Source of the DNA: Alphaproteobacteria bacterium
Lineage (GTDB): Bacteria > Pseudomonadota > Alphaproteobacteria > 16-39-46
Direction of reading: 5' to 3'
Length of the DNA: 64,000 nt
NCBI GenBank assembly: GCA_018401675.1
Contig: JAGYKM010000001.1
Location: forward strand, 105,695 to 169,694
Position numbers and translations under genes: made by a program. Below are positions 2,586 to 41,395 of this stretch, one piece after another; positions within the stretch are counted from its first letter, which is position 1; the number at the start of each line of letters is the position of its first letter. A model generated the notes under the pieces. It was not told the origin of the DNA, ran no database searches, and was given only the letters and a program-made list of their open reading frames with translations.

Positions 2586-4024
2586 CTATTTTTTTTTATT
2601 TTTTGGTTTTGCGGGACCAAATACCGGACTCCGGTAGTTCCATATTAAACCAAAGAAAAAGGCGCTCATAAGCGAAGAAACAGCAAAAACTATAAAAGCA
2701 GCATCCCATCCCCAATGATCCACAATGATGCCGATGCCCACACCAGCTACACCGGCCCCAATATAACCAAAGGTTCCTGTAAGTCCATTTGCGGCTCCAG
2801 CGGCTTTTTTAGAAGCAAAATCTGCTGCTGCAACGCCTTGAAGGATTTGGGGGCCACTAACAAAAAAGCCTATCATTATCATAACAAAGGAACTTTGGAA
2901 ATTTGAACCAGAGGGAATTTGCCATAGATAGATTAAGAAAAGCATCAAGATAACCATAAAGACCATGGCAATAGGTCCGCGACGTCCTTTGAACGCGCGA
3001 TCTGATAAAGACCCAGCTACAATGCCTCCAAAGATGGCGGCAACATCAAAGCCAACAGTTTGCCAGGACGCACCCACCAAGGTGCTTCCTTTATTTTCTA
3101 TAAGAAAAGTAGGGGCCCAAGTTAAAAGACCAAAACGTAAGACATAAAAAAACATATTGGCCCAGCACATGTACCATACCAGTTTGTTTTTTAGGACACG
3201 ATCGACAAGAATCTCTCTTAAAGAAAGGGTCTGATCGCTCTCTTCTTGGATTACTAAAGAGGCGGATTTCTTTTCTTTATGTTCTTCAATGGACGGAAGC
3301 CCCAGAGATTCAGGGGTATCGCGCAAGCGGTTGTACAAAGCCAAGGCCAAAAAGACCGTAATAATACCTGGCACCCAAAAGGCGCTACGCCAACCCCATT
3401 CTACAATGAGGTATCCGCCGCCTACGGTTACAAGGGCAGCACCTATTTGATGAGAGGAATTCCAAATGGCCCACTTTGTGGCAATCTCTTTGGGATGAAA
3501 CCAGTGGGTAAGCAGTCTTTGACACGGGGGAGCCCCCATAGACTGAAAACACGCATTCAAGGCCCAGAAGAGAAAAATAAATAAATATTAGATATAAACC
3601 CCGTGGCGAAACACACAAAGGCCGACAGACATAAGCCTAGGGACATGAAATAACGGGCATTAGATCGGTCGCTGAAGGTGCCGCTAATAGCTTTTCCAAG
3701 GCCATATATAAAGGCAAATGAACTTCCTATCATCCCTAACTGAGCTTTGGAATAGCCGAATTCCAAACTCATTTGAGGCAGGGCAATGGCTAAGTTCTGG
3801 CGCACCAGATAAAAGGCAGCGTATCCGAACATTAAAGAGTAAAGGATGCGAAAACGCCAATAGCGAAAGGATTTCGATACCGAAGGAGAAGATCCTTGAG
3901 ACTGGGTCACGGGGTTTACAGTAGATAACGGACGGTGACCTGACTCACCAGATGCTCTCATGCCTATTCCTTTCTTGTAAAGTTGAAGTACTGATAGAGG
4001 ATTCTTTGCCAAAAAGCAATTCAA
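2586..4024 (-). pseudogene. GlpT/UhpC-family organophosphate:phosphate antiporter (MFS), interrupted by a frameshift near nt 3557-3575
   Basis: Two adjacent ORFs (3557..4024 and 2586..3560) together align along the full GlpT/UhpC length ('FGYAAFYLVRQNLAIALP', 'SMGAPPCQRLLTHWF', 'DTPESLGLPSIEE'). The junction lies in a T-rich run (sense 'tatttatttattttt'). Confidence 0.7.
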
Positions 4025-8312: not shown

Positions 8313-9074
8313 ATGAGTGAAAAACCCCCAGAAACGGGAAACGAAGAAGCGCGCATGTTGAGTTTAGACCGAGTGGGAAAAACCTATGGAAAAAGGCCTG
8401 TTCTGAGGAATATTAGCCTCACTATCCGCCGGGGGGAAGCTGTAGGCTTATTGGGCCCCAATGGCGCAGGAAAAACTACCTGTTTTTATATCATCATGGG
8501 TCTTATTCGTCCTGACTACGGCCAAGTTTTGCTGGATGGAAATGACATCACCATGCTGCCAATGTATCAACGAGCCCGATTAGGGGTGGGTTATTTGCCC
8601 CAAGAAGTATCGATTTTTAGAGGGTTATCAGTTGAGCAGAATATACAAGCTGTACTCGAAATCTCTGGCTTGTCTCGAGACGAGCAAGAAGGTCTTTTAG
8701 ACCATCTTTTGGCTATCTTTTCTATCGGTCATTTGCGCCGTGCGTCAGCCATGTCGTTGTCGGGAGGAGAGCGACGGCGTGTAGAGATTGCTAGGAGCCT
8801 TGCAGCCCGTCCCCAGTTTATTTTACTGGATGAACCTTTGGCAGGTATAGATCCCATTGCCGTGGGCGAGATAAGGGACGTAATCAGTCAGCTGAAAGAA
8901 TTAGGGATAGGTGTATTAATTACCGATCATAATGTCAGAGATGCCTTGGGGATCGTTGATAGAGCTTACATCGTCCATGAGGGGGTAATTATGGCAGAAG
9001 GGCCCCCAGAAGAAGTGACAGTCCACGAAGAGGTGAGAAAGGTCTACTTGGGAGAAAACTTTCAGCTCTCCTAG
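8313..9074 (+). CDS. lptB: LPS export ABC transporter ATP-binding protein LptB
   Basis: Walker A 'GPNGAGKTT', signature 'LSGGERRRVEIARSLA', Walker B 'ILLDEP'. This is near-identical in pattern to LptB. Confidence 0.9.
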   Translation: MSEKPPETGNEEARMLSLDRVGKTYGKRPVLRNISLTIRRGEAVGLLGPNGAGKTTCFYIIMGLIRPDYGQVLLDGNDITMLPMYQRARLGVGYLPQEVSIFRGLSVEQNIQAVLEISGLSRDEQEGLLDHLLAIFSIGHLRRASAMSLSGGERRRVEIARSLAARPQFILLDEPLAGIDPIAVGEIRDVISQLKELGIGVLITDHNVRDALGIVDRAYIVHEGVIMAEGPPEEVTVHEEVRKVYLGENFQLS

Positions 9075-9512: not shown

Positions 9513-12236
<2,724 letters not shown>

Positions 12237-12342
12237 CTTTTTAGCGTACAGAAATAAATCTCTATACTCATTAATTAAGTACAGCCTCATAATCTTACAT
12301 ATTTCTCTTTCTTAGGCAAAGATACAGAATGCTTTAGAATGA

Positions 12343-12458
12343 CTTGGTGGTTTTAGCGAGGGTGTCACACACGATCCCATACCGAACTCGACAGTGAAAC
12401 CCCTCAGCGCCAATGGTACTATGTCTTAAGGCATGGGAGAGTAGGTCGCTGCCAGGTC
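12343..12458 (+). rRNA. rrf: 5S ribosomal RNA
   Basis: 'cttggtggttttagcgagggtgtcacacacgatcccataccgaactcg...gcatgggagagtaggtcgctgccaggtc' is a canonical 5S. It is flanked by a 12-bp perfect inverted repeat (aatgctttagaa / ttctaaagcatt) and then a T9 run. Confidence 0.95.
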
Positions 12459-12792: not shown

Positions 12793-13800
12793 ATGAAATT
12801 AAAAATTTTTATGGCATCCCTAGCCGGATTGCTTGTGGCTATGGAGCTTATTCCTCCCGTTGCGTCTGCTATGGAGCAAGATCCCAGCGAACAATCAGAA
12901 CGAGCGCGTCGCCGAGCCCAGGTGCTTGAAGCAGCGGAAAGACGAGCTAGAGCTCTTCAACAACCAACGGCTGATGCTGATGTCGTGACTGAAGATTTCG
13001 CAGTTACGCCGGGTGCATTTGGGTCCCAAGTTCCCGGATTAGGTTCTTTGGCGGTACATGAAGAGCCTTCTGATGATGAGGAATCTCTTCGTGAAGCCAT
13101 TGCGATGTCCTTGGGCGCTGTGGGAGACTTGTCCCTTGCTGCGCGAGATTTATCCGCCGTTGCTTTGGTGCCGTCGATGCCGACGGTGGTTGATCAAGAA
13201 GAGGGAGCTGCCTACTTGGAACCCTCAGCGGCATCCGCCGGATGGCCTGGTCAACGCCCTCTAGCCCCTAGAGATTTGAGTGTTCTTTCGGAGGAAGAGC
13301 AAGTGCAGCGTGCTATGGATGAATCCATGGGGTTGCCTTTAGCTCCAGTCCACAATATTGGTCAAGAACAGACGCGCCAACCAGACGCTCCTTATGAAGA
13401 TATTCTTGTTCCCCAAGGTCCCGTCCATGCTAATGCTCAAACATTGGAGTTGTTATCCCATATTCGAGCCCAAGGAAGGCATGAGGTCGTTAAAGAGTAC
13501 GAACGCGTTACCTCTTTAATAGCCGAAAGTTTATCCGCCGAGGCTGAAGTGGATGCACTGAATGCTTCTGCGATTCAGGACGCTCTTCTTCTCGATGTGC
13601 GAGCTGATATGAGAAGAGCTGCTCAGGAGTTAGGTGTTCAAGGTATCGATTTTCTGGGAGATGAAGGGTTATTGGAGGCCATTGAAGCCGCTCACTTTAC
13701 CCAGGTAATTATTCCGATGCTTAGATCAGAAATGCAGTTTACTTTGGGATTGCGTGAAGAGGAAATAGTGCGGATCATGGGAGATCTTGAGATTCAATAA
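12793..13800 (+). CDS. Secreted/membrane-anchored hypothetical protein with two ubiquitin-interacting-motif (UIM)-like segments; candidate host-interaction effector
   Basis: N-terminal hydrophobic signal 'MKLKIFMASLAGLLVAMELIPPVASA'. UIM-like 'DDEESLREAIAMSLG' and 'SEEEQVQRAMDESMG' match the acidic-x-ϕ-xxAϕxxS pattern. The sequence is rich in A/E/R and acidic residues. Confidence 0.5.
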   Translation: MKLKIFMASLAGLLVAMELIPPVASAMEQDPSEQSERARRRAQVLEAAERRARALQQPTADADVVTEDFAVTPGAFGSQVPGLGSLAVHEEPSDDEESLREAIAMSLGAVGDLSLAARDLSAVALVPSMPTVVDQEEGAAYLEPSAASAGWPGQRPLAPRDLSVLSEEEQVQRAMDESMGLPLAPVHNIGQEQTRQPDAPYEDILVPQGPVHANAQTLELLSHIRAQGRHEVVKEYERVTSLIAESLSAEAEVDALNASAIQDALLLDVRADMRRAAQELGVQGIDFLGDEGLLEAIEAAHFTQVIIPMLRSEMQFTLGLREEEIVRIMGDLEIQ

Positions 13801-24829: not shown

Positions 24830-27202
24830 ATGCAAGCTGTGAATAAAATAGTAAAGATGCTCTTAAGTGTATGCGTGGTTTTCCTAATGGCATCGACCAT
24901 GGTCATGGGGATGCATCAAAGAGGCGGCATGACATTGGATGACGACAGAAGGCCCAGTGAGCATCTGTGTCCTATTACCCTTAACGTGATGAGAGACCCG
25001 GTTGTTGCCGCGGATGGACACTCCTATGAAAGAACTTCTATTGTGGAACAATTTAAACGTAGGGTCCAGAGTCCCATGACAGGCTTGCCCATAACCAGGC
25101 ACCTTTTTGATAATAATGCCCTACGAACAATGATTAGAGAATGGCAAGCGGGTAGGCAAAGTGAGCCTTGTGAGCTAGACACACGAGAGGCAAGCAGCAT
25201 AGCTCAACGGGTCAAAGATGAGTTTGAAAGACATGCGTATCTTTTAACCTCAGAGAAAGGTGCTTTAGGGCAGCATATTGTTGCTTTTTTAGGCAATACG
25301 GGAGCAGGCAAGAGTACCTTAATCAATTTTCTGGCTGGAAAAGCACTTAAGGTAGGTGACTATGGGGAGGATTACGTCTTAAGAGATAGTGGGGACACAA
25401 CAGCCATGATCATTGGACAAGGAGGAAGATCAGAAACCCTTTATCCAAAGTCTATTGATGTGGGAGAACTGCGATTTTTTGATCTTCCGGGGTTTAATGA
25501 CACCGATGGATCAGAGCGGAACTTAGTCAATGCAGCCTTTATTAGGAAGATTCTTTTGGATGCAGAATCGGTACGTTTTGTTTTTGTTGCGGGACAAGAT
25601 CAGTTTACGTCGGATCGGAGTGCTTCTATAAGAAAGATGTTTCAGTCCATTAATCGTCTATTTGTGGGAGAAGAAGAGATCAATTTTACGGATAATGGAA
25701 TATTTGTTGCGACAAAAGTGACTTGTGCTGCGGATAGGGACATAATCCCCTTTTTGTTAAGAAAAACAGATTCTTCTGACAAAGAAGAGCTGCAAGAGCA
25801 GTTGGATGCTTGGTCGAATAACGACAAAATAGGTCGTATGTTTCATCCTTTGCTTGGCGCATCCAATGAAGCCATGGGCGATGAGATCCTAAGACGCATC
25901 CGAAACGTGAGACCAGTGAAGGTTCGAGGCGTTAATGTAAGTGCTCTGTATCCACCCGAAACAAAAACAGCTTTAGAAAGAATGTTTTCGAGTATGATGG
26001 AAGGCGCGTTAGAACAGAAGAGAGCAGCCCCTTTAGAAACACTCAGTCAGTACAACGAAGCCATAAGAGAATACAGAGACGAAAGATTTTGGGAACTGTT
26101 GGATGCTGATCTTTGCGTGAAGGAGCAGGCTATGAGATTGCTGAAAGAGTTTTGCATTACGCCTTACACTAAAGCCCTTAAAGATTTTGAAAAAAACGAG
26201 GCAATAAGGCATCAAGCGCACATTCAGAATCTGGAAGAGAAGAAGCAAGCTCGGGTGAGCGATATTGAGGATAGAACGGAAGAGAGAGCCAAGAGGGTTA
26301 TTGCTTCCATATTTCCAAGACCACAAGGAGAAGATGTTGTGCCTTTTGATTTTGCCTATCACAAAGACTACTACGAAGGGGTATGTGGATCAGTATCAAT
26401 CACCCAGCTGGCTACTGATGCCACGGAACAAGAGCTCGTGAGACAGCATTATGCCGGTGTCATCAGTCGTCATAGTCACGACCAGATGATGCGTTGGCAG
26501 GAAAGATTTAGTGGGGTTGCGGAGCTATTCAGGGAAGTTGCCCAAATGAAAAAGGAATTAGAAGCCTTGCGTGGAGAAAAGGCTGAAGGTGCCACGCTTG
26601 TGGCGCAACCTGAGAGGGTATCGATCCCAGAAGTTGCTTTGGGACACGAAGCGGTTTACGAAAGATTTTTAAAAGGAGTCTTGGTTTATCGCCCAAACCC
26701 AAACAGCGATGAGGGAAAAATAGAGCTCCCTATTGCCGCGTTAGAAAATCCCCTTGAGGGCACCTTTGATTTATCTAACTGTGGTGATGCGGGACAGTAC
26801 TTAAGTATAGCGACAGGGTATCGCAAGTATGTTAATGCTGAAAATGCCAAGAAGGTTGAAATCTGGATCGCACCGAGATTTTTGATAGAAAAGGACATAA
26901 GAGGACCGGCCCGACATCTAGCACCTATCATGGGGGCGTGGGATAAGACTACCGTCCCGGTTGGCCTTTTCTTCAATTGGGGAGGATGGAATGAAATGGA
27001 TTCTTTTGATTATGCCGTCACCCACACGCGCAAGAAGCTATGTAGCATGCATATGCACAGCGTGTATGCATCAGCTTCCGGCGCAGGATTAAACGGGCAT
27101 AAGCCACAAAACAGTTACATCTGTATGGCAAAAGAGTCGAGGTGCCCGGTATGCGTCGTGGCGGAGGTTGGTCATCCAGATCATTTCATGTTTCGTTTAT
27201 GA
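24830..27202 (+). CDS. Chimeric U-box (E3 ubiquitin-ligase fold) + P-loop GTPase (AIG1/GIMAP-/MMR_HSR1-like) protein with a coiled-coil and unknown C-terminal domain; candidate secreted effector
   Basis: U-box: 'CPITLNVMRDPVVAADGHSYERTSIVEQF...LPITRHLFDNNALRTMIREW' aligns motif-for-motif with eukaryotic U-boxes (CPISLELMRDPV..GQTYER.SI..W...P.T...L.PN..LR.LI..W). GTPase: G1 'GNTGAGKST', G3 'DLPGFND'. The N-terminus is hydrophobic. Confidence 0.8.
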   Translation: MQAVNKIVKMLLSVCVVFLMASTMVMGMHQRGGMTLDDDRRPSEHLCPITLNVMRDPVVAADGHSYERTSIVEQFKRRVQSPMTGLPITRHLFDNNALRTMIREWQAGRQSEPCELDTREASSIAQRVKDEFERHAYLLTSEKGALGQHIVAFLGNTGAGKSTLINFLAGKALKVGDYGEDYVLRDSGDTTAMIIGQGGRSETLYPKSIDVGELRFFDLPGFNDTDGSERNLVNAAFIRKILLDAESVRFVFVAGQDQFTSDRSASIRKMFQSINRLFVGEEEINFTDNGIFVATKVTCAADRDIIPFLLRKTDSSDKEELQEQLDAWSNNDKIGRMFHPLLGASNEAMGDEILRRIRNVRPVKVRGVNVSALYPPETKTALERMFSSMMEGALEQKRAAPLETLSQYNEAIREYRDERFWELLDADLCVKEQAMRLLKEFCITPYTKALKDFEKNEAIRHQAHIQNLEEKKQARVSDIEDRTEERAKRVIASIFPRPQGEDVVPFDFAYHKDYYEGVCGSVSITQLATDATEQELVRQHYAGVISRHSHDQMMRWQERFSGVAELFREVAQMKKELEALRGEKAEGATLVAQPERVSIPEVALGHEAVYERFLKGVLVYRPNPNSDEGKIELPIAALENPLEGTFDLSNCGDAGQYLSIATGYRKYVNAENAKKVEIWIAPRFLIEKDIRGPARHLAPIMGAWDKTTVPVGLFFNWGGWNEMDSFDYAVTHTRKKLCSMHMHSVYASASGAGLNGHKPQNSYICMAKESRCPVCVVAEVGHPDHFMFRL

Positions 27203-27215
27203 ACTAAAAAAATGA

Positions 27216-28152
27216 TTAAACAAGTGACCCAGCAGCCACGCATGGACCCAGACTCCAACATGAAAAGAGACTGGGCAGAGACGTTTGCACACAAGATGCA
27301 AACGTCTCGATCGATGATAATCCTAATTTCAGCCAGCGTGTCCATTGATCGATGTACCGACGCAACCGCTTTGTTTTATCAAGGTCAGAAGAAGCCTGTG
27401 CGCGCAACGATAGGAGAAGGTTTTTAAAATAGTCATCACAAGGAGGGGCTTCGTTCACTTGATATAAAGATATATCCCGTGTTTCTGCTTTTTTTTGATA
27501 GCGACGGGAATTGGTCTTCCTGGGCGGGCGCTCATAAAGCGCGCTGGCACGTTCGTGAAAACGCCTGATAGTTTCTTTGGCAAGGAGTATTTTTTTGTGC
27601 TCAAAGTAATAAGCTAAAAAGGTAAAGCCTTGGCTTATTTTTCCAATGTAAGTTTTTGAGGAGTGAAGGTGTAGTTTTAGTTCTGCAATAATCTTATGGG
27701 TACGTCTAACAACCTTACGCAAAGCGGTTTTACTTTTGGCAAAAACCACCCAATCATCCATAAAACGGGAATAAAAAACCATCTTGAATTGTCCCCATGG
27801 CTTGATCAAGAGGCATTAAGTCGATAGCACCAAGCAAGGGAGATCAAGGACTCCCCATAGGAATGCCTTTTTCAAGATAGTCATAGAAAATGCCGCCATA
27901 GGTTTTCGTACGATGGCATGCTTTGCTAATAAGGCTTAAAAGAGCAGGATTCTTAATGTAAGATTCAAGAATGCCCATTAAAACGTCAAAGTTAATGGAG
28001 TCATAGTACCCTTTAATATCACTCCGCATCACGTAATGATAATTAGGTAAAGCCCTATGAGTATCGTGATTACACATTATGGCCTTTGATATGATAACAG
28101 GATTATGGAATATGGTGGCCCATTTGAGATTCAATGGCTTGGGTGATGAGCT
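27216..28152 (-). pseudogene. Degenerate reverse transcriptase (group II intron / retron-like RT), 5'-truncated and frameshifted; retroelement remnant
   Basis: Two out-of-frame ORFs carry RT motif 3 'SDIKGYYDSINFDVLM', motif 4 'GIPMGSP', motif 5 'RFMDDWVVF' (YADD-type) and motif 6/7 'LHLHSSKTYI...GFTFLAY'. The N-terminal motifs 0-2 are absent or degenerate, and no intron domain V was found. Confidence 0.6.
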
Positions 28153-28765
28153 TTAAGGTAATCATATCTTATGAAGCCCAAAGAGAGATAATAGCGTCTT
28201 CTAACACGTAGAGATTAAGAGCGCTAAATTGATACGTTCCCTCATTGAGTTAGCTGAGCATGATGGGTTTGATTTCATTCCAGCCGTGGCGAAGATGCCA
28301 AATATCCGAATTGGGGCCGTGTTTTTTACGAAGAGATACAATCCACAGGTAAGCACGATCCATAGCATCTAGGGTATGTAATAAGGGTTATTTGACAAGG
28401 TGTTATTAATCTCCCTATAAGAGCAGTTAATGGGCATATTAGACAAAGTAATCTCGGTCCGAGGAAATAATCTATGTCAGAATGCATTTGTTTGAAGGCA
28501 AAAGTGAATATATGGATGAAAAAAGAGCAGAACATCCAAGAGGTTGTCTTGCGATCCCAATAAGGTTTAAACTTTGTCGGGTGGTAAGGTGGCTTATAGG
28601 AGAAAGCCCCAAGGGGCTTGGTTTGTTAAGTGTCAGGCTAAAGAACCAAGGCCAAAAAGGCTTTTTTGAGACTAGAAAGTCTGATAATGTTAAAAAGAAT
28701 AAGAATTCCTTGAAAACTCAGGGGGGGTAAGAACCATAATAAACAGTGAGAACGGGAGACTGAAA

Positions 28766-31944: not shown

Positions 31945-32017
31945 GACAAAGTCATCCAAAAAGAGTATTCAAATGAGGGGTATTCTTCAAAGAGTCTAAT
32001 ATCAAGGAAGACATATA

Positions 32018-33609
32018 ATGCAGGGAGTTGCCAAGAAAATAACCCACGAGGGGGGGCGATGGGGAGATAAAATTTGGTTTTTCTCCGGTGCTTCTTGCCC
32101 TTGTTATTATAGGAATATTGGGAAAAACGGCCTCTGAAAAGAACCCGAGAAATGTTCTTGCCGGCATAGTTTTGCAGATGTTGCTCAACAAATACTTCCC
32201 ACTGTGGTTGATGTTTCAGGAACGAGCGCCCCAAGTGAATCGGGGTCGGATGGTGGCTCTTTGGGAGGCGCGCCTCATGGGGATCCCCGGCTTGCTCCAA
32301 GTGGCGGGCATCGCCGCTCCTTGGGAGGCTTTGTAGTAGACCCTTCAGGATATATTTTGACCAACGGACATGTCATTTACGAAATAGAGGCAGTGACCGT
32401 ATCCTTATCTGATGGATCGGTATACCCAGCGGAAGTTATTGGAAAAGATGAACGCACTGACCTGGCTCTTTTGAAATAAAAACGCCTATGAAATTGCCTT
32501 CATTGTCCTGGGGCGACTCCCACCAAGCGCGTGTAGGAGACTGGGTATTAGTGGCAGGAAGTCCTTTTGGATTTGGACGGTCGATTTCTGCAGGTATTAT
32601 TTCAGCTCGAGCTCGTGATATTTCTAAGATGTCGGGAGAGGGAGGACCAGAGGGTTTATTTGTGGGTTATGTGGATGATTTGATTCAAACGGATGCGGCT
32701 ATTAATCTGGGCAACTCAGGAGGGCCCATGGTGGATGTCCAAGGAAATGTGATCGGCGTTAATGTGGCTATTTATTCACCATCGGGGGGAAGTGTAGGTA
32801 TTGGTTTTGCGGTTCCGGCTTGTGTAGCTCAACGGGTGTATGAAGCTTTACGCGCAAAGGGCCATGTGTCTTATGGGTGGATAGGCGTGAGAGTGCAAGA
32901 GGTGGACGATTTTATAGCGACTTCATTGAGGTCACAAGAATACTATAAAAAGGGCGTCAAAGGCGCTTTGGTGAGTGGTATAGACCCGGAAGGATCAGCA
33001 GCAAAAGCTGGTCTGGAGCTTTCGGATATTATTCTTTCATTTGGGGGGCACCCCATAGAATCCTACGATCGTCTCACGCGCATTGTGGGTGAAACGAGTC
33101 CTGGAAAATCCGTTTCAGTTCGTTTTTTACGTGATGGAAAGGTTCTTGATAGAAAAGTAAGGGTGGAGGCATGGTCTTTAGATAAAGGTACTCAAAAAAA
33201 CCTTCCATCTCATGTAGAGCCCTCTTTTCTTCCCTATTCTGCCGATATGCCTGGTTTATTTAGAATGGATCTTTTAGGGATATCTTTGCTCCCATTAACT
33301 GCTTCAATGAGTGGAGCTTTGTACCTACTTGAGGGGACAAAAGGACTGTACGTGGTCCAAAGCAATGGAACAGGTGAGACAGTCTCTATGACGATGGGGG
33401 GTATAAGGGCTGGAGATGTAATTGTGGAGGTTAATAATGAACCAGTGGGGTCTCCTCAGCGCCTGAATGATCTTTTGGCTGCGTGGCAGAAGGAAAATAA
33501 GAGGACGCTTTTGCTAAAAATTTGGCGGCAAGGTCAAGTTCATTACATCGGGGTAGCTTTGCCTTCAGAAAAAAAAGATCATGAAATGAGTTCTAATCTT
33601 TCTTCCTAA
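32018..33609 (+). pseudogene. htrA: Periplasmic serine endoprotease HtrA/DegP (trypsin + 2 PDZ), interrupted by 2-3 single-nucleotide frameshifts (genuine pseudogene or homopolymer sequencing errors)
   Basis: The pieces are in three frames: a signal region 'LLALVIIGILG', 'SFADVAQQILPTVVDVSGT...YILTNGHVI...DERTDLALLK' (catalytic His), then 'GDSHQARVGDWVLVAGSPFGFGRSISAGIISA' (catalytic Ser) plus PDZ domains. The breaks are at the G7 run 32050-56, at ~32135-32170, and at the A-run 32477-32482. Confidence 0.75.
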
Positions 33610-35090: not shown

Positions 35091-36332
35091 TTACTTATCA
35101 CCACCCACTGGGGTTTTTCCAGAAAACTTTTGTTCCAGCTTTTGGAGGAGCCTTTCCGTTTCAGCATTGCTCGACGGAGTGCGCTTCGGTGCCGATAAAG
35201 TTGCTGATAACGGAACACGGGCATGGTTTTTTTGAAGCCCTATTCCTGGACGCCTCTTGCCCTTAGTGCCTGTATTGGTAGGAGAGAGAGGCAGACTCCT
35301 TGATAGCTGATCTGAAGAATAATCGGAGATCCCTTGAGCGTCAGGAGCGAGTTCCGCTTTTGCCGGTTCTTCATCCCTAGCTATTGTACTTTCCTGTTGT
35401 GTTATTCCAGATGCTTCTTCTGACAGGGGCACCACAGGCAAGGCTCTTTGAGGAAATCTTCTGGCAGTCGGTATATTGGCGTAAGCTACTTTAAATGTCT
35501 CAAAAGACTGCAAATCCTGATCTGAATAGGGAAATCCTGTTTCTTGAGATCCTAGATAGATAGGCCCCTTTACGTCTTCATCAAAATGCTCTCCCAGAGC
35601 GGCATAAAGTTTGCTAAGAGCGGGCTTAGCTTGATCCCAGATGGCAAAAAGTTCAGGATCAGATGTGGGAAAAAGAACCTTGGGGTTTTTTAAAGTGGTA
35701 AATCGGTATCCTAACCCAGCGCTTTCAAAGAGATCAGGTTTTTCTACCAGTAATCGACTTAACCGGACAGGGCCATAAGCCTCAGCTAAGCTGCTAAAGT
35801 AATCACTCTTGAGTCCTTGCTCTGGGGCCTCTAGTGAAGCATCCAATTCTTCGGTCAAAGCACTAGAGGCGAGAGCGGAATAGTGAGCCTGGCGTGAGGC
35901 AGAAAATTTTTGCTCCAAGCGGCGCCCGTTACTGTCTCCATATAGCCATGAAGCGTTATAAGGGATCACACCTGATGATTTTTGGAGGCGTGATTCAAAG
36001 GTGTCTCTAATCTCTGAAAGCGTGGTTCGCGCTTCTTGAGAGAGGGGTTGAGTTTCTGTATGCTTATCTATGAGGCCAGAAAAGAGAGAGATTTGATTAA
36101 GAAATAGTAAATCTTCACCGATATCGCTAATGCTTTGTATGTGCTTTGTATGTGCGGCATCATTGGCTTCAACTACTTGAGGGGCTGGTAGAGCCTTTGC
36201 AACTCTTTCTGCACCAGGGTCTTCTGGATTTACTTGCGGTTTGACTGCCATAAGAGGGTTTCCAGTCAAAGACAAAACAAGTGCAGCGAAAGAAAGAGAG
36301 GGTGTATATATTCGAGATGATTTGTTATTCAT
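35091..36332 (-). CDS. Secreted hypothetical protein (413 aa; signal peptide, Pro/Ser-rich C-terminus); candidate surface or effector protein
   Basis: N-terminus 'MNNKSSRIYTPSLSFAALVLSLTGNPLMA'. No recognisable domain. It contains an 11-bp tandem duplication at 36131-36152. Confidence 0.4.
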   Translation of the reverse strand: MNNKSSRIYTPSLSFAALVLSLTGNPLMAVKPQVNPEDPGAERVAKALPAPQVVEANDAAHTKHIQSISDIGEDLLFLNQISLFSGLIDKHTETQPLSQEARTTLSEIRDTFESRLQKSSGVIPYNASWLYGDSNGRRLEQKFSASRQAHYSALASSALTEELDASLEAPEQGLKSDYFSSLAEAYGPVRLSRLLVEKPDLFESAGLGYRFTTLKNPKVLFPTSDPELFAIWDQAKPALSKLYAALGEHFDEDVKGPIYLGSQETGFPYSDQDLQSFETFKVAYANIPTARRFPQRALPVVPLSEEASGITQQESTIARDEEPAKAELAPDAQGISDYSSDQLSRSLPLSPTNTGTKGKRRPGIGLQKNHARVPLSATLSAPKRTPSSNAETERLLQKLEQKFSGKTPVGGDK

Positions 36333-39490: not shown

Positions 39491-41395
39491 ATGGTTTTGA
39501 GGTATGGTGATGGATTATCGCGTAGAGGAGTAGGGTATAGGCTGTTTGGCCTGGCCGTAGGAATAGGTTTTTGTTTTCCTAAGATCAGTCTGGCCACTCC
39601 CCAAGCTTCTTACTATGAAACCAGACCCATTATGATTCCTGTTTCCACTTCTTTTATAGAGTCTGAAAGTGCCTCTCTTCCTGTTCCCGGAACGAATAAT
39701 AATCCCCTGTATCCCTTAAGTCTATTTGAAGCTCTTCAAGTGAGCCCGGAGTTGTCCGCCGTTAAAACGGCAGGTACTGAAAAAGTACTTTTTCCTGGCG
39801 CACCCTCGGGGGGCAGTTTGGTGGTCTGGGAAGGGGTGGTTCTCAATGATCCATCCACGGTTCGAGGTTCTTTTGATTTTTCCCTACTAAAAGGAGCTTC
39901 TTTTCAGACAGTGAATCTTGAGAGAGGAACAAATCCACTGGTGACCACGGCGGCTATGGGGGGTATTATGACTTTGGAAACTCCCGAGAGACTGTTCCTT
40001 GCCCAGAAAATGGATAGTTCTTCTTTTGTAGGTCAAGGCGACTTGGATTCTATGGGAGGAAGATTTGTTCAGTTAACTCAATTTGTGCCTTTTTCTCAAG
40101 GTGCTTTATATCTTGGAGGTTCCTTTTCCGACACACCTAGATCCCCTGTGGGGACAGCCCCTTTACGAAAACAGTCTCGGAGGAAGGATGAATCTTTATC
40201 CCTTACAGGAAATTATGGATCTGTGGATAAGACCCAATTGGTTTTTCTATGCCGAACCGCTGATGAAAAATTTGATGATGTCTATGATTCCCAAGGTACT
40301 TTCCAAGGTGCTTCTCACTACCTTATTGGTCGTTTAAAGAATCTTTCCCAGGATGGACGGACACGCTCAAGCATGTCGATTGGGCAAATTATGTATGATC
40401 GAAGGGCTTATCATCAAAGTCAAACTCTTTCGAAATATAAAGGTATGAGTCAAACTCTGAAGGTAGATAGCACTCATATTGTGCAAAAAGGGATTCAACT
40501 TCAAGGGGGAATTGAAACTGAAAGGGAATCAGCTAAAGATTATGGCTTCTCAGAAGTGAGGGATACTATAAGCCTTTTTATGGGGCCCAAAGTGAGGTTT
40601 CACGAATATTGGACAAGTGAAGGGTCAATCAGAGTGAATCAAGGTCCCCATGATACCCTAATGGGTATTATGACGGGTGTTGGTTACCAGAGAAAGGGTG
40701 ATGGGTTCTTTATTAAAGCAGATGTGGCCCAAAAAAGACCTAGCCTTTATTATCTGCATGCACAAGACTATTCTTTACCTCAATTTGGGACCTTGCCTCA
40801 GATTTCTTATCCTGTAGGTAACGCGTCTTTAAAAAAGGAGTCCTCTTGGGGGGTACTGACTCGGGTGAGCAAAGGCTACTGGGAAGGCCAAATGGTAGGG
40901 GGGTTCGAGATTTTTTACAGAAAATTTGAGAACTATATTTATCCTACAGCAACCATTCCGCGGACCTATACGCAAGGTGGTGGGGCAAGCACCTGGGGAT
41001 TTGGGCCTAAAGTACAGATTGGAACTCACTCAATTCGGTTTTTGAGTCAAATTCAGTGGTTTCAGGTGTCTCATAGCTCTCAAGTACCGGACTTAGTTTT
41101 GAGTCCAGCTCATGCTCAGGCTCTCAATCAGCTCTCTTATGACTCTCCAGACACGACCTCTCCAAAGTTCGGAGGAATCGTGTCTATTACCACTCACTAT
41201 AAACCCTATTCGACTGTGGGCCAAACGAAGAGCTATTCATTAGTGACCATGGGGATGCACTATGGCATTCAAGAGAATATCCTTGGATTTGTGCGTGTGA
41301 ACAATCTTCTGAATAAACGGATTCAAGACCCCTATGATTCTCTCTTGGAATTGGATCCTTTTAGTTTTAGGGTAGGTATCAAGATAGAACTCTAA
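39491..41395 (+). CDS. Large hypothetical outer-membrane/beta-barrel-like protein (634 aa), uncharacterised
   Basis: N-terminal hydrophobic signal 'LFGLAVGIGFCFPKISLA' and alternating amphipathic beta-strand-like segments toward the C-terminus. There is no TonB box and the protein does not end in a terminal Phe/Trp. Confidence 0.3.
   Translation: MVLRYGDGLSRRGVGYRLFGLAVGIGFCFPKISLATPQASYYETRPIMIPVSTSFIESESASLPVPGTNNNPLYPLSLFEALQVSPELSAVKTAGTEKVLFPGAPSGGSLVVWEGVVLNDPSTVRGSFDFSLLKGASFQTVNLERGTNPLVTTAAMGGIMTLETPERLFLAQKMDSSSFVGQGDLDSMGGRFVQLTQFVPFSQGALYLGGSFSDTPRSPVGTAPLRKQSRRKDESLSLTGNYGSVDKTQLVFLCRTADEKFDDVYDSQGTFQGASHYLIGRLKNLSQDGRTRSSMSIGQIMYDRRAYHQSQTLSKYKGMSQTLKVDSTHIVQKGIQLQGGIETERESAKDYGFSEVRDTISLFMGPKVRFHEYWTSEGSIRVNQGPHDTLMGIMTGVGYQRKGDGFFIKADVAQKRPSLYYLHAQDYSLPQFGTLPQISYPVGNASLKKESSWGVLTRVSKGYWEGQMVGGFEIFYRKFENYIYPTATIPRTYTQGGGASTWGFGPKVQIGTHSIRFLSQIQWFQVSHSSQVPDLVLSPAHAQALNQLSYDSPDTTSPKFGGIVSITTHYKPYSTVGQTKSYSLVTMGMHYGIQENILGFVRVNNLLNKRIQDPYDSLLELDPFSFRVGIKIEL

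Follow-up and report, generated by a model that had tools for sequence, protein, structure and literature searches.

A predicted exported U-box-GTPase protein with a widely shared C-terminal module, beside a UG4-class reverse-transcriptase pseudogene in an uncultured alphaproteobacterium

The stretch of DNA analysed here, 64,000 nucleotides (nt) of contig JAGYKM010000001.1 and hereafter called the window, carries at positions 24830..27202 on the + strand an open reading frame (ORF) of 790 amino acids (aa) that starts with ATG. A preliminary description of this DNA had noticed that the ORF fuses a U-box to a P-loop GTPase domain; we confirmed the fusion, and the position given for it is exact. 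The gene and its 3' neighbour are laid out as follows, with coordinates here and below referring to the window unless a related locus (L followed by a number) is named.

24830..27202, + strand: the whole ORF, made up of signal peptide, U-box, GIMAP-like GTPase, helical stalk, C-terminal module and variable tail
24830..24913, + strand: predicted Sec-type signal peptide, residues 1 to ~28, with a K-rich n-region, a hydrophobic core and an acidic start of the mature protein (DDDRRP)
24953..25156, + strand: U-box, residues 42-109 (Pfam PF04564)
25262..25819, + strand: P-loop GTPase domain, GIMAP/Toc-like, residues ~145-330
25820..26584, + strand: helical stalk or bundle, residues ~331-585, placed from modelled long helices and Foldseek alignments
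26627..27079, + strand: C-terminal alpha/beta domain, residues ~600-750, the module that defines a large superfamily of predicted secreted proteins
27089..27183, + strand: variable tail, residues ~754-785, the window's equivalent of a hypervariable block
27184..27218, no strand assigned: conserved nucleotide element TTTCATGTTTCGTTTATGAACTAAAAAAATGATTA, lying between two convergent stop codons and holding stops in three frames
27231..28387, - strand: UG4-class reverse-transcriptase (RT) pseudogene in three frame pieces, identified with PADLOC (RT_UG4) and by tblastn against the intact RT of L003

The U-box scored 47.6 bits against PF04564, well over the Pfam gathering cutoff of 21.4 (E = 1.8e-12; profile positions 2-71 of 73), and ten relatives scored 55-64 bits. 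By sequence it matched solved plant PUB U-boxes (E ~3e-6), Legionella LubX (1.8e-4) and CHIP. In the AlphaFold model, built from a 41-member alignment and having a mean predicted local distance difference test score (pLDDT) of 83, it adopts a RING-like fold without zinc ligands and superposes on solved U-boxes. Residues I49, P57, D62, G63, Y66, P82 and W105 are invariant or nearly so in the 41 homologs. I49, P82 and W105, which we take to be the E2 contacts from what is established for the CHIP and PUB U-boxes, are invariant. The preliminary description had named an unscored U-box, or E2-contact residues missing on alignment, as grounds for abandoning its view, and neither occurred. We did not find genes for E1, E2 or ubiquitin-like proteins nearby in any locus.

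The GTPase domain passed the Pfam cutoffs of both Dynamin_N (32.1 versus 27, the best stretch spanning only profile positions 91-154) and MMR_HSR1 (28.2 versus 21.9); matches in NCBIfam stayed at the P-loop level. The closest solved relatives of the fold are GIMAP7 and GIMAP4, of the GIMAP/Toc group. Pfam AIG1 (PF04548) was absent among the matches at E <= 1. Of the AIG1/GIMAP/MMR_HSR1 flavour first proposed for this domain, the MMR_HSR1 score and the GIMAP fold thus held, while the Pfam AIG1 assignment did not. The motifs conserved in the 41-member alignment are G1 GNTGAGKST (155-163), T203, D218-x-P-G221 and K296.

Downstream of the GTPase, the model places long helices at residues 340-359, 376-398 and 443-494, in a region that has no Pfam match. 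When the G domain and the helical region were searched together with Foldseek, they aligned over 400-578 columns with IRG/p47 proteins, atlastin, RNF112, mitofusin, IniA and bacterial dynamin-like proteins, at TM-scores of only 0.2-0.3. The best PADLOC match was LeoBC, the dynamin-like protein of Eleos (2.4e-13), over only 129/601 profile positions, and neither the window nor any of eight related loci has an adjoining second dynamin-like gene, such as Eleos has in its pairing of LeoA and LeoBC. The alpha/beta domain that follows, of ~150 residues, had no relative in the PDB. The preliminary description had seen in this part of the protein a ~450-aa coiled coil plus a C-terminal domain. The C-terminal domain ends at ~750, and what lies beyond is hypervariable, frame-variable read-through into a conserved nucleotide element.

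A Sec-type layout at the N-terminus, called heuristically, was found in 60 of the 68 members with a recognisable U-box start, the window protein included; the other 8 look truncated. It consists of a K/R-rich n-region, a hydrophobic core of 10-15 residues and a small-residue c-region (AFG, ASA, SFA, AIA), followed by an acidic stretch. In the window protein a hydrophobic helix is modelled at residues 2-26. A signal peptide also occurs in most of the wider superfamily that shares the C-terminal domain. This recurrent pattern argues against a cytoplasmic role, and it makes recruitment from the cytoplasm to a type IV system in the manner of LubX and GobX unlikely. Therefore, the injected-effector paradigm of LubX/GobX, to which the protein had initially been compared, is a misfit. 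Besides carrying a Sec-like signal, the protein differs from Dot/Icm substrates of this type in that its C-terminal "motif" exists at the nucleotide level, and Dot/Icm genes are absent from the window.

Three further ORFs of the window have signal-peptide-like N-termini and no Pfam match: 12793-13800 (+), 35091-36332 (-) and 39491-41395 (+), of 335, 413 and 634 aa, respectively. The signal of the one at 12793-13800 ends with VASA followed by MEQD, in the style of the U-box protein. These ORFs may encode further secreted proteins.

Homologs with the architecture of the window protein form ~110 clusters, nearly all of them unnamed and from metagenomes; a scan of the genome collection returned one locus only. 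The identical protein turned up in the homolog search on an NCBI contig of 223.5 kb, and an exact look-up of the window protein gave no match. Some relatives of the GTPase family carry TIR in place of the U-box, and in one relative phage tail-collar/Gp10_C domains replace the C-terminal module. L003 encodes a second U-box-GTPase paralog, of 935 aa, with another C-terminus.

The C-terminal domain reaches much further than this architecture. Its profile retrieved 742 representative clusters, and 460 matched with E <= 1e-30; the domain is nearly always C-terminal there, in proteins of 178 to 1826 aa. Among 98 proteins, its N-terminal partners were trypsin-like peptidase (9), PARP (6), eukaryote-type kinase (5, E ~1e-55), Sel1 (5) and U-box (5), with ankyrin (3), LRR (3) and TIR (2) as rarer partners and SEFIR and TPR also present. 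L001 encodes a standalone form, a signal peptide plus the C-terminal domain. In Ca. Finniella inopinata (SCFB01000010.1; L015 6001-7026) a protein of 341 aa that bears the annotation "U-box domain-containing protein" is made up of signal peptide, U-box and C-terminal module and has no GTPase, so that the U-box and the module can be joined directly.

The only named carriers of the C-terminal domain are Ca. Odyssella acanthamoebae and Ca. Finniella inopinata, amoeba endosymbionts of the family Paracaedibacteraceae (Holosporales). A 2025 review of the Holosporales (PMC11909080) describes all characterised members of the order as obligately associated with eukaryotes and calls their host-interaction mechanisms and secreted molecules poorly understood; effectors of the present kind go unmentioned in it. 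Zhang et al. 2012 (PMC3482391) listed, as distinct effector modules that endosymbionts deploy, the U-box and the GIMAP-type GTPase domain. Our literature searches returned no prior description of a U-box-GTPase fusion or of the C-terminal domain, and nothing specific on a bacterial architecture joining a U-box to a GTPase or dynamin. This agrees with the earlier remark that the architecture is not that of a described effector family. Nor is it a common housekeeping family of free-living bacteria, the alternative that had been raised against the effector view: the gene is mobile-element cargo in uncultured alphaproteobacteria. The fusion and the C-terminal module thus appear undescribed, and they add to the known class of bacterial U-box effectors.

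We found that the 3' ends of these genes have an unusual organisation. The last six residues of the members fall into classes (xFMFRL, FHVxFVN and SCFVCELK), and at the DNA level these classes are one conserved element, ~TTTCAYGTTTYGTTTRTGAACTRAAA, read in three frames. In 6 of 7 loci each frame of the element, which is ~35 nt long, has its own stop, the offsets being 16, 21 and 26-29, and the genes use all three; in the window the offsets are 16, 21 and 29. It is single-copy in the window (27184-27218), where chance would give none, and is found elsewhere at L003 12410, L013 8404, L014 2954, L011 10453 and L017 6883. Around it the window shares an 83-88% identical block with L003 and L011. 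Tail and element also occur across the wider superfamily of the C-terminal domain.

The tail that precedes the element is modelled with pLDDT below 50 and is unalignable among homologs; even within one 90%-identity cluster the tails differ completely. In the trio L003/L013/L014 the DNA is near-identical up to ...GAAAATTGGAAAAAA, with 93.5% identity in the flank before the block. The block itself measures 60, 75 and 106 nt, respectively, and its similarity of 58.7% is on a par with that of shuffled sequence (mean 56%); from the element onward identity returns to 98.2%. Beside an intact RT the block is rich in GC and poor in A; beside a degraded one it has an ordinary composition. A C-terminal peptide secretion signal, suggested by the basic tail and the hF-x-F-x-L end, was rejected because identical nucleotides are read in all three frames, and a MITE-like repeated element was rejected because there is one copy per locus. 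We did not observe a terminator-like site on the + strand of the window. On the minus strand, a hairpin with a T-tract at 27239-27224 might terminate the RT transcript.

The RT pseudogene and the U-box gene are convergent; the end of the former lies 13 nt from the stop codon of the latter. Two ORF fragments in the window matched PADLOC RT_UG4 at 9.8e-27 and 1e-16, compared with 6.6e-84 for the intact copy of L003, and tblastn against the latter covered residues 29-132, 139-240 and 225-422 in different frames at 52-64% identity. Intact orthologs occupy the same position in L003 and L014, which stem from the metagenomes ERZ26695388 and SRR29605852 and are 87% identical over a 4.2-kb unit running from the U-box gene through the RT to ~350 nt upstream of it. 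Among ten loci with the C-terminal domain, an RT or its remnant abuts the element in six (the window, L003, L014, L013, L011 and L017, the last from Ca. Odyssella), always through the 3' end of the RT. Where only a remnant survives it comes from the C-terminal part of the RT, and one further locus, L002, has a displaced remnant. The ~350 nt upstream of the intact RTs (L003 13732-14081 and L014 4270-4619, in RT sense) are 87% conserved and contain a C9-C12 tract and no credible ORF. UG/Abi RTs usually encode a partner non-coding RNA upstream of the RT.

A diversity-generating retroelement (DGR) was considered and rejected: the RT is of the UG4 class, there are no direct or inverted repeats and no template repeat, and the C-terminal domain does not have the lectin fold. 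An adenine-tolerant template scan matched A-rich tracts only.

The window is ordinary alphaproteobacterial chromosomal sequence, with nusA-infB-truB-pnp upstream of the gene, hflK-hflC-degP-miaA downstream, and Lpt genes, PlsX/FabH, GltX, TrcR and ComEC among its other genes. The 23S and 5S rRNA genes at 9516-12457 (+; the 23S match covers 2723 nt of a 2925-position model) have no 16S gene upstream, lptB ending at 9074, and are therefore unlinked from it. The PNPase shares no more than 73% identity with any other sequence, and its nearest named matches (~69%) belong to Rhodospirillales-type families. There are also possible signs of gene decay. The degP/htrA gene at 31945-33609 (+) appears interrupted, since the N-terminal protease half, with TNGHV, is in another frame and stops just before an ORF at 32488 that begins mid-domain; this could be a pseudogene or an assembly error. 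An MFS transporter at 2586-4024 (-) seems split into overlapping ORFs of 155 and 324 aa, the second covering only profile positions 97-346, which may be more decay.

In the relatives, the gene is cargo of mobile elements, with neighbours that include F-type TraG_N, coupling-protein and relaxase genes, transposases, Fic, ankyrin and a group II intron, as well as CdiA-like toxin genes with SUKH immunity genes and the PDC-S01 candidate defence gene. In L003 (507-9476) and L013 (1-5476) a giant DUF637 (CdiA-like) protein of ~2500-2600 aa is encoded just upstream of the U-box-GTPase gene and is followed by SUKH/SMI1_KNR4 immunity-type genes, a polymorphic-toxin locus.

Considering these results, we favour, as the somewhat better-than-even reading, that the gene product is a Sec-exported modular protein of a Holosporales-like, protist-living bacterium and acts on the eukaryotic host. 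The U-box, standing at the start of the mature protein, would recruit a host E2 carrying ubiquitin. The GIMAP-like GTPase and the helical stalk could serve as a nucleotide-dependent switch, or as a unit for oligomerisation and membrane binding. The C-terminal alpha/beta domain would most likely be a common export, entry or host-targeting module. The effector interpretation of the preliminary description is thereby partly supported, by evidence that is indirect, its delivery route and its C-terminus having needed correction. Several points weigh against this reading. E3 activity, GTP hydrolysis and secretion are predicted activities, as are regulation by the GTPase and the choice of host target. 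The G4 motif is TKxT rather than [NT]KxD, with no conserved Asp, which makes guanine specificity uncertain. The heuristic behind the signal-peptide call is not a trained predictor, and the hydrophobic core of the window protein is long, ~19 residues, and might instead anchor it in a membrane. The 64-kb window contains neither a secretion system nor an ATP/ADP translocase, nor any other such hallmark. Some family members carry Bacteroidota or Bacillota labels on their metagenome-assembled genomes, which could reflect either mis-binning or a wider host range. Likewise, the taxonomy and lifestyle of the window organism, presumably a deep-branching alphaproteobacterium related to amoeba-dwelling bacteria, are deduced from its genes.

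Alternatively, a type IV or type VI system might inject the protein straight from the cytoplasm, in the way that Legionella delivers LubX and GobX, and the N-terminal helix would then act as a host-membrane anchor. The gene does lie a few ORFs downstream of type IV coupling-protein and TraG_N genes in L002 and L012, nearly all Holosporales share a conserved type VI system (PMC11909080), the core of the window protein is rather long for a signal peptide, and the tails are often basic, like VirB/D4-type signals. However, the n-region, short core and small-residue c-region recur in 60/68 members and in unrelated cargo types, the nucleotide element read in three frames leaves no conserved C-terminal peptide signal, and the neighbouring type IV genes, being F-type conjugation genes with relaxases, look like DNA-transfer machinery carrying cargo. 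We therefore regard injection as unlikely. A bacterial conflict or anti-phage system, in which a dynamin/GIMAP-like NTPase sensor with swappable U-box or TIR heads would work with a UG/Abi RT partner, strikes us as more improbable still. It would accommodate the PADLOC LeoBC match (2.4e-13), the replacement of the U-box by TIR in relatives, an adjacent RT from the UG/Abi lineage, many groups of which are defensive, and the company of PDC-S01 and CdiA-like toxin/SUKH immunity genes on the mobile elements. Yet a Sec signal would put the protein outside the cytoplasm, away from GTP and phage DNA; the LeoBC match spans 129/601 positions only and has no adjacent LeoA; UG4 is not enriched in defence islands; no ubiquitin-like, E1 or E2 genes are nearby; the partners of the C-terminal domain are overwhelmingly eukaryote-interaction domains; and its named carriers are obligate protist symbionts.

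Regarding the 3' end, we prefer, with low confidence, the reading that a UG4 retroelement is associated site-specifically with the 3' ends of genes carrying the C-terminal module. The hypervariable block would then be junction sequence made or replaced in RT-dependent events, and the conserved terminal element would halt translation in whichever frame the ribosome arrives. The window's own RT is dead. Our confidence is low because nearly all members carry the element and no clean empty site without it was identified; present in essentially every member, the element looks integral to the gene module rather than a sporadic insertion. Other results also speak against the retroelement reading. In three of the ten loci (L012, Finniella L015 and L001) we found no RT trace. 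Fold z-scores for structured RNA in the tail ranged inconsistently from -2.3 to +0.25. In the region upstream of the RT of L003 and L014, a search for non-coding RNA gave no credible Rfam match and a fold z-score of 0.08, with only two sequences for covariation. An alternative to which we assign little probability is that the RT actively diversifies the tails of the superfamily with no template repeat, writing untemplated sequence between fixed boundaries while the stop element ends any frame. The sharp boundary between conserved flanks and an unalignable block of variable length would fit, as would the wholly different tails in one 90%-identity cluster, the fixed stop offsets (16, 21 and 26 in 6/7 loci, all three used) and the GC-rich, A-poor block beside intact RTs but not degraded ones. 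Some UG/Abi RTs, such as AbiK, synthesise untemplated DNA, which also counts in its favour. Nevertheless, the DNA-level comparison involves three closely related loci only, the variability of frame argues that the tail peptide is not under selection, and many carriers, the window included, have either no RT or a dead one. Taken as a whole, the C-terminal module, hypervariable block, stop element and UG4 RT could conceivably form a previously unknown retroelement system, either a site-specific bacterial retroelement confined to the gene 3' ends of one effector superfamily or a template-repeat-free RT mechanism that rewrites the C-terminal tails of secreted, host-directed proteins; we put this forward as a tentative and rather doubtful proposal.

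The C-terminal module offers a sequence handle on hundreds of candidate host-directed proteins, among them kinases, PARPs, U-box ligases and proteins with TIR, ankyrin and LRR domains. The Holosporales are a major lineage of protist endosymbionts whose interaction with the host is poorly understood. The pairing of a U-box with a GIMAP-like GTPase makes the window protein a candidate nucleotide-gated E3 ligase, for which vertebrate RNF112 is the only analogue we found, and the part that GIMAP and IRG GTPases play in host immunity makes mimicry an idea that can be tested. What may be most novel here is the hypervariable gene end with its link to a retroelement. The recurrent coupling of a UG4 RT to such a frame-independent gene end puts an RT class that lacks an assigned function into a concrete, testable context and, if the reading as a new retroelement system were true, would provide these long-orphan enzymes with a biological role.

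Among known systems, LubX and GobX of Legionella and NleG of E. coli are likewise bacterial proteins with a eukaryote-type U-box and predicted use of host E2, LubX being a direct match (E = 1.8e-4), and as with LubX and GobX the carrier here is probably an intracellular associate of protists. Those proteins, however, reach the host by type IV or type III injection and have no Sec signal, GTPase, stalk or C-terminal module of this kind, and the present carrier is alphaproteobacterial. In the survey of Zhang et al. 2012 (PMC3482391) U-box and GTPase appear as alternatives to each other on separate proteins, mostly of Amoebophilus (Bacteroidota); here they are fused and joined to the C-terminal module. 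From GIMAP/AIG1 and Toc GTPases the window protein differs in that Pfam AIG1 goes unscored and G4 reads TKxT. Vertebrate RNF112 likewise has a RING-class domain N-terminal to a large GTPase and a helical domain (9jjx, among the top Foldseek matches of the GTPase plus helical region, E = 8e-5), but it has a zinc RING and C-terminal transmembrane segments where the window protein has a U-box and an N-terminal signal, and identity is ~12%. We consider RNF112 the nearest functional analogue of a nucleotide-regulated E3; the likeness appears to be one of architecture and does not point to a common origin of the fusion.

The adjacent RT belongs by profile to the UG4 group (Simon & Zimmerly 2008; Mestre et al. 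2022). This group has been characterised as plasmid-borne and without defence enrichment, and among non-intron RTs it alone is described as showing hints of retromobility. Published neighbours of UG4 are fimbrial-like proteins, and the literature consulted contained no link to a U-box or effector gene, a hypervariable block or a three-frame stop. DGRs likewise place an RT beside the gene of an exported protein, whose hypervariable 3' stretch has a conserved element at its boundary. Finally, the C-terminal domains of type IX secretion (T9SS) cargo and those of autotransporters follow a similar logic, an N-terminal Sec signal and variable passengers with a shared C-terminal domain. The T9SS is a Bacteroidota system, and its C-terminal domains share no sequence or structural similarity with the alpha/beta domain of ~150 residues described here; this last comparison is one of analogy only.

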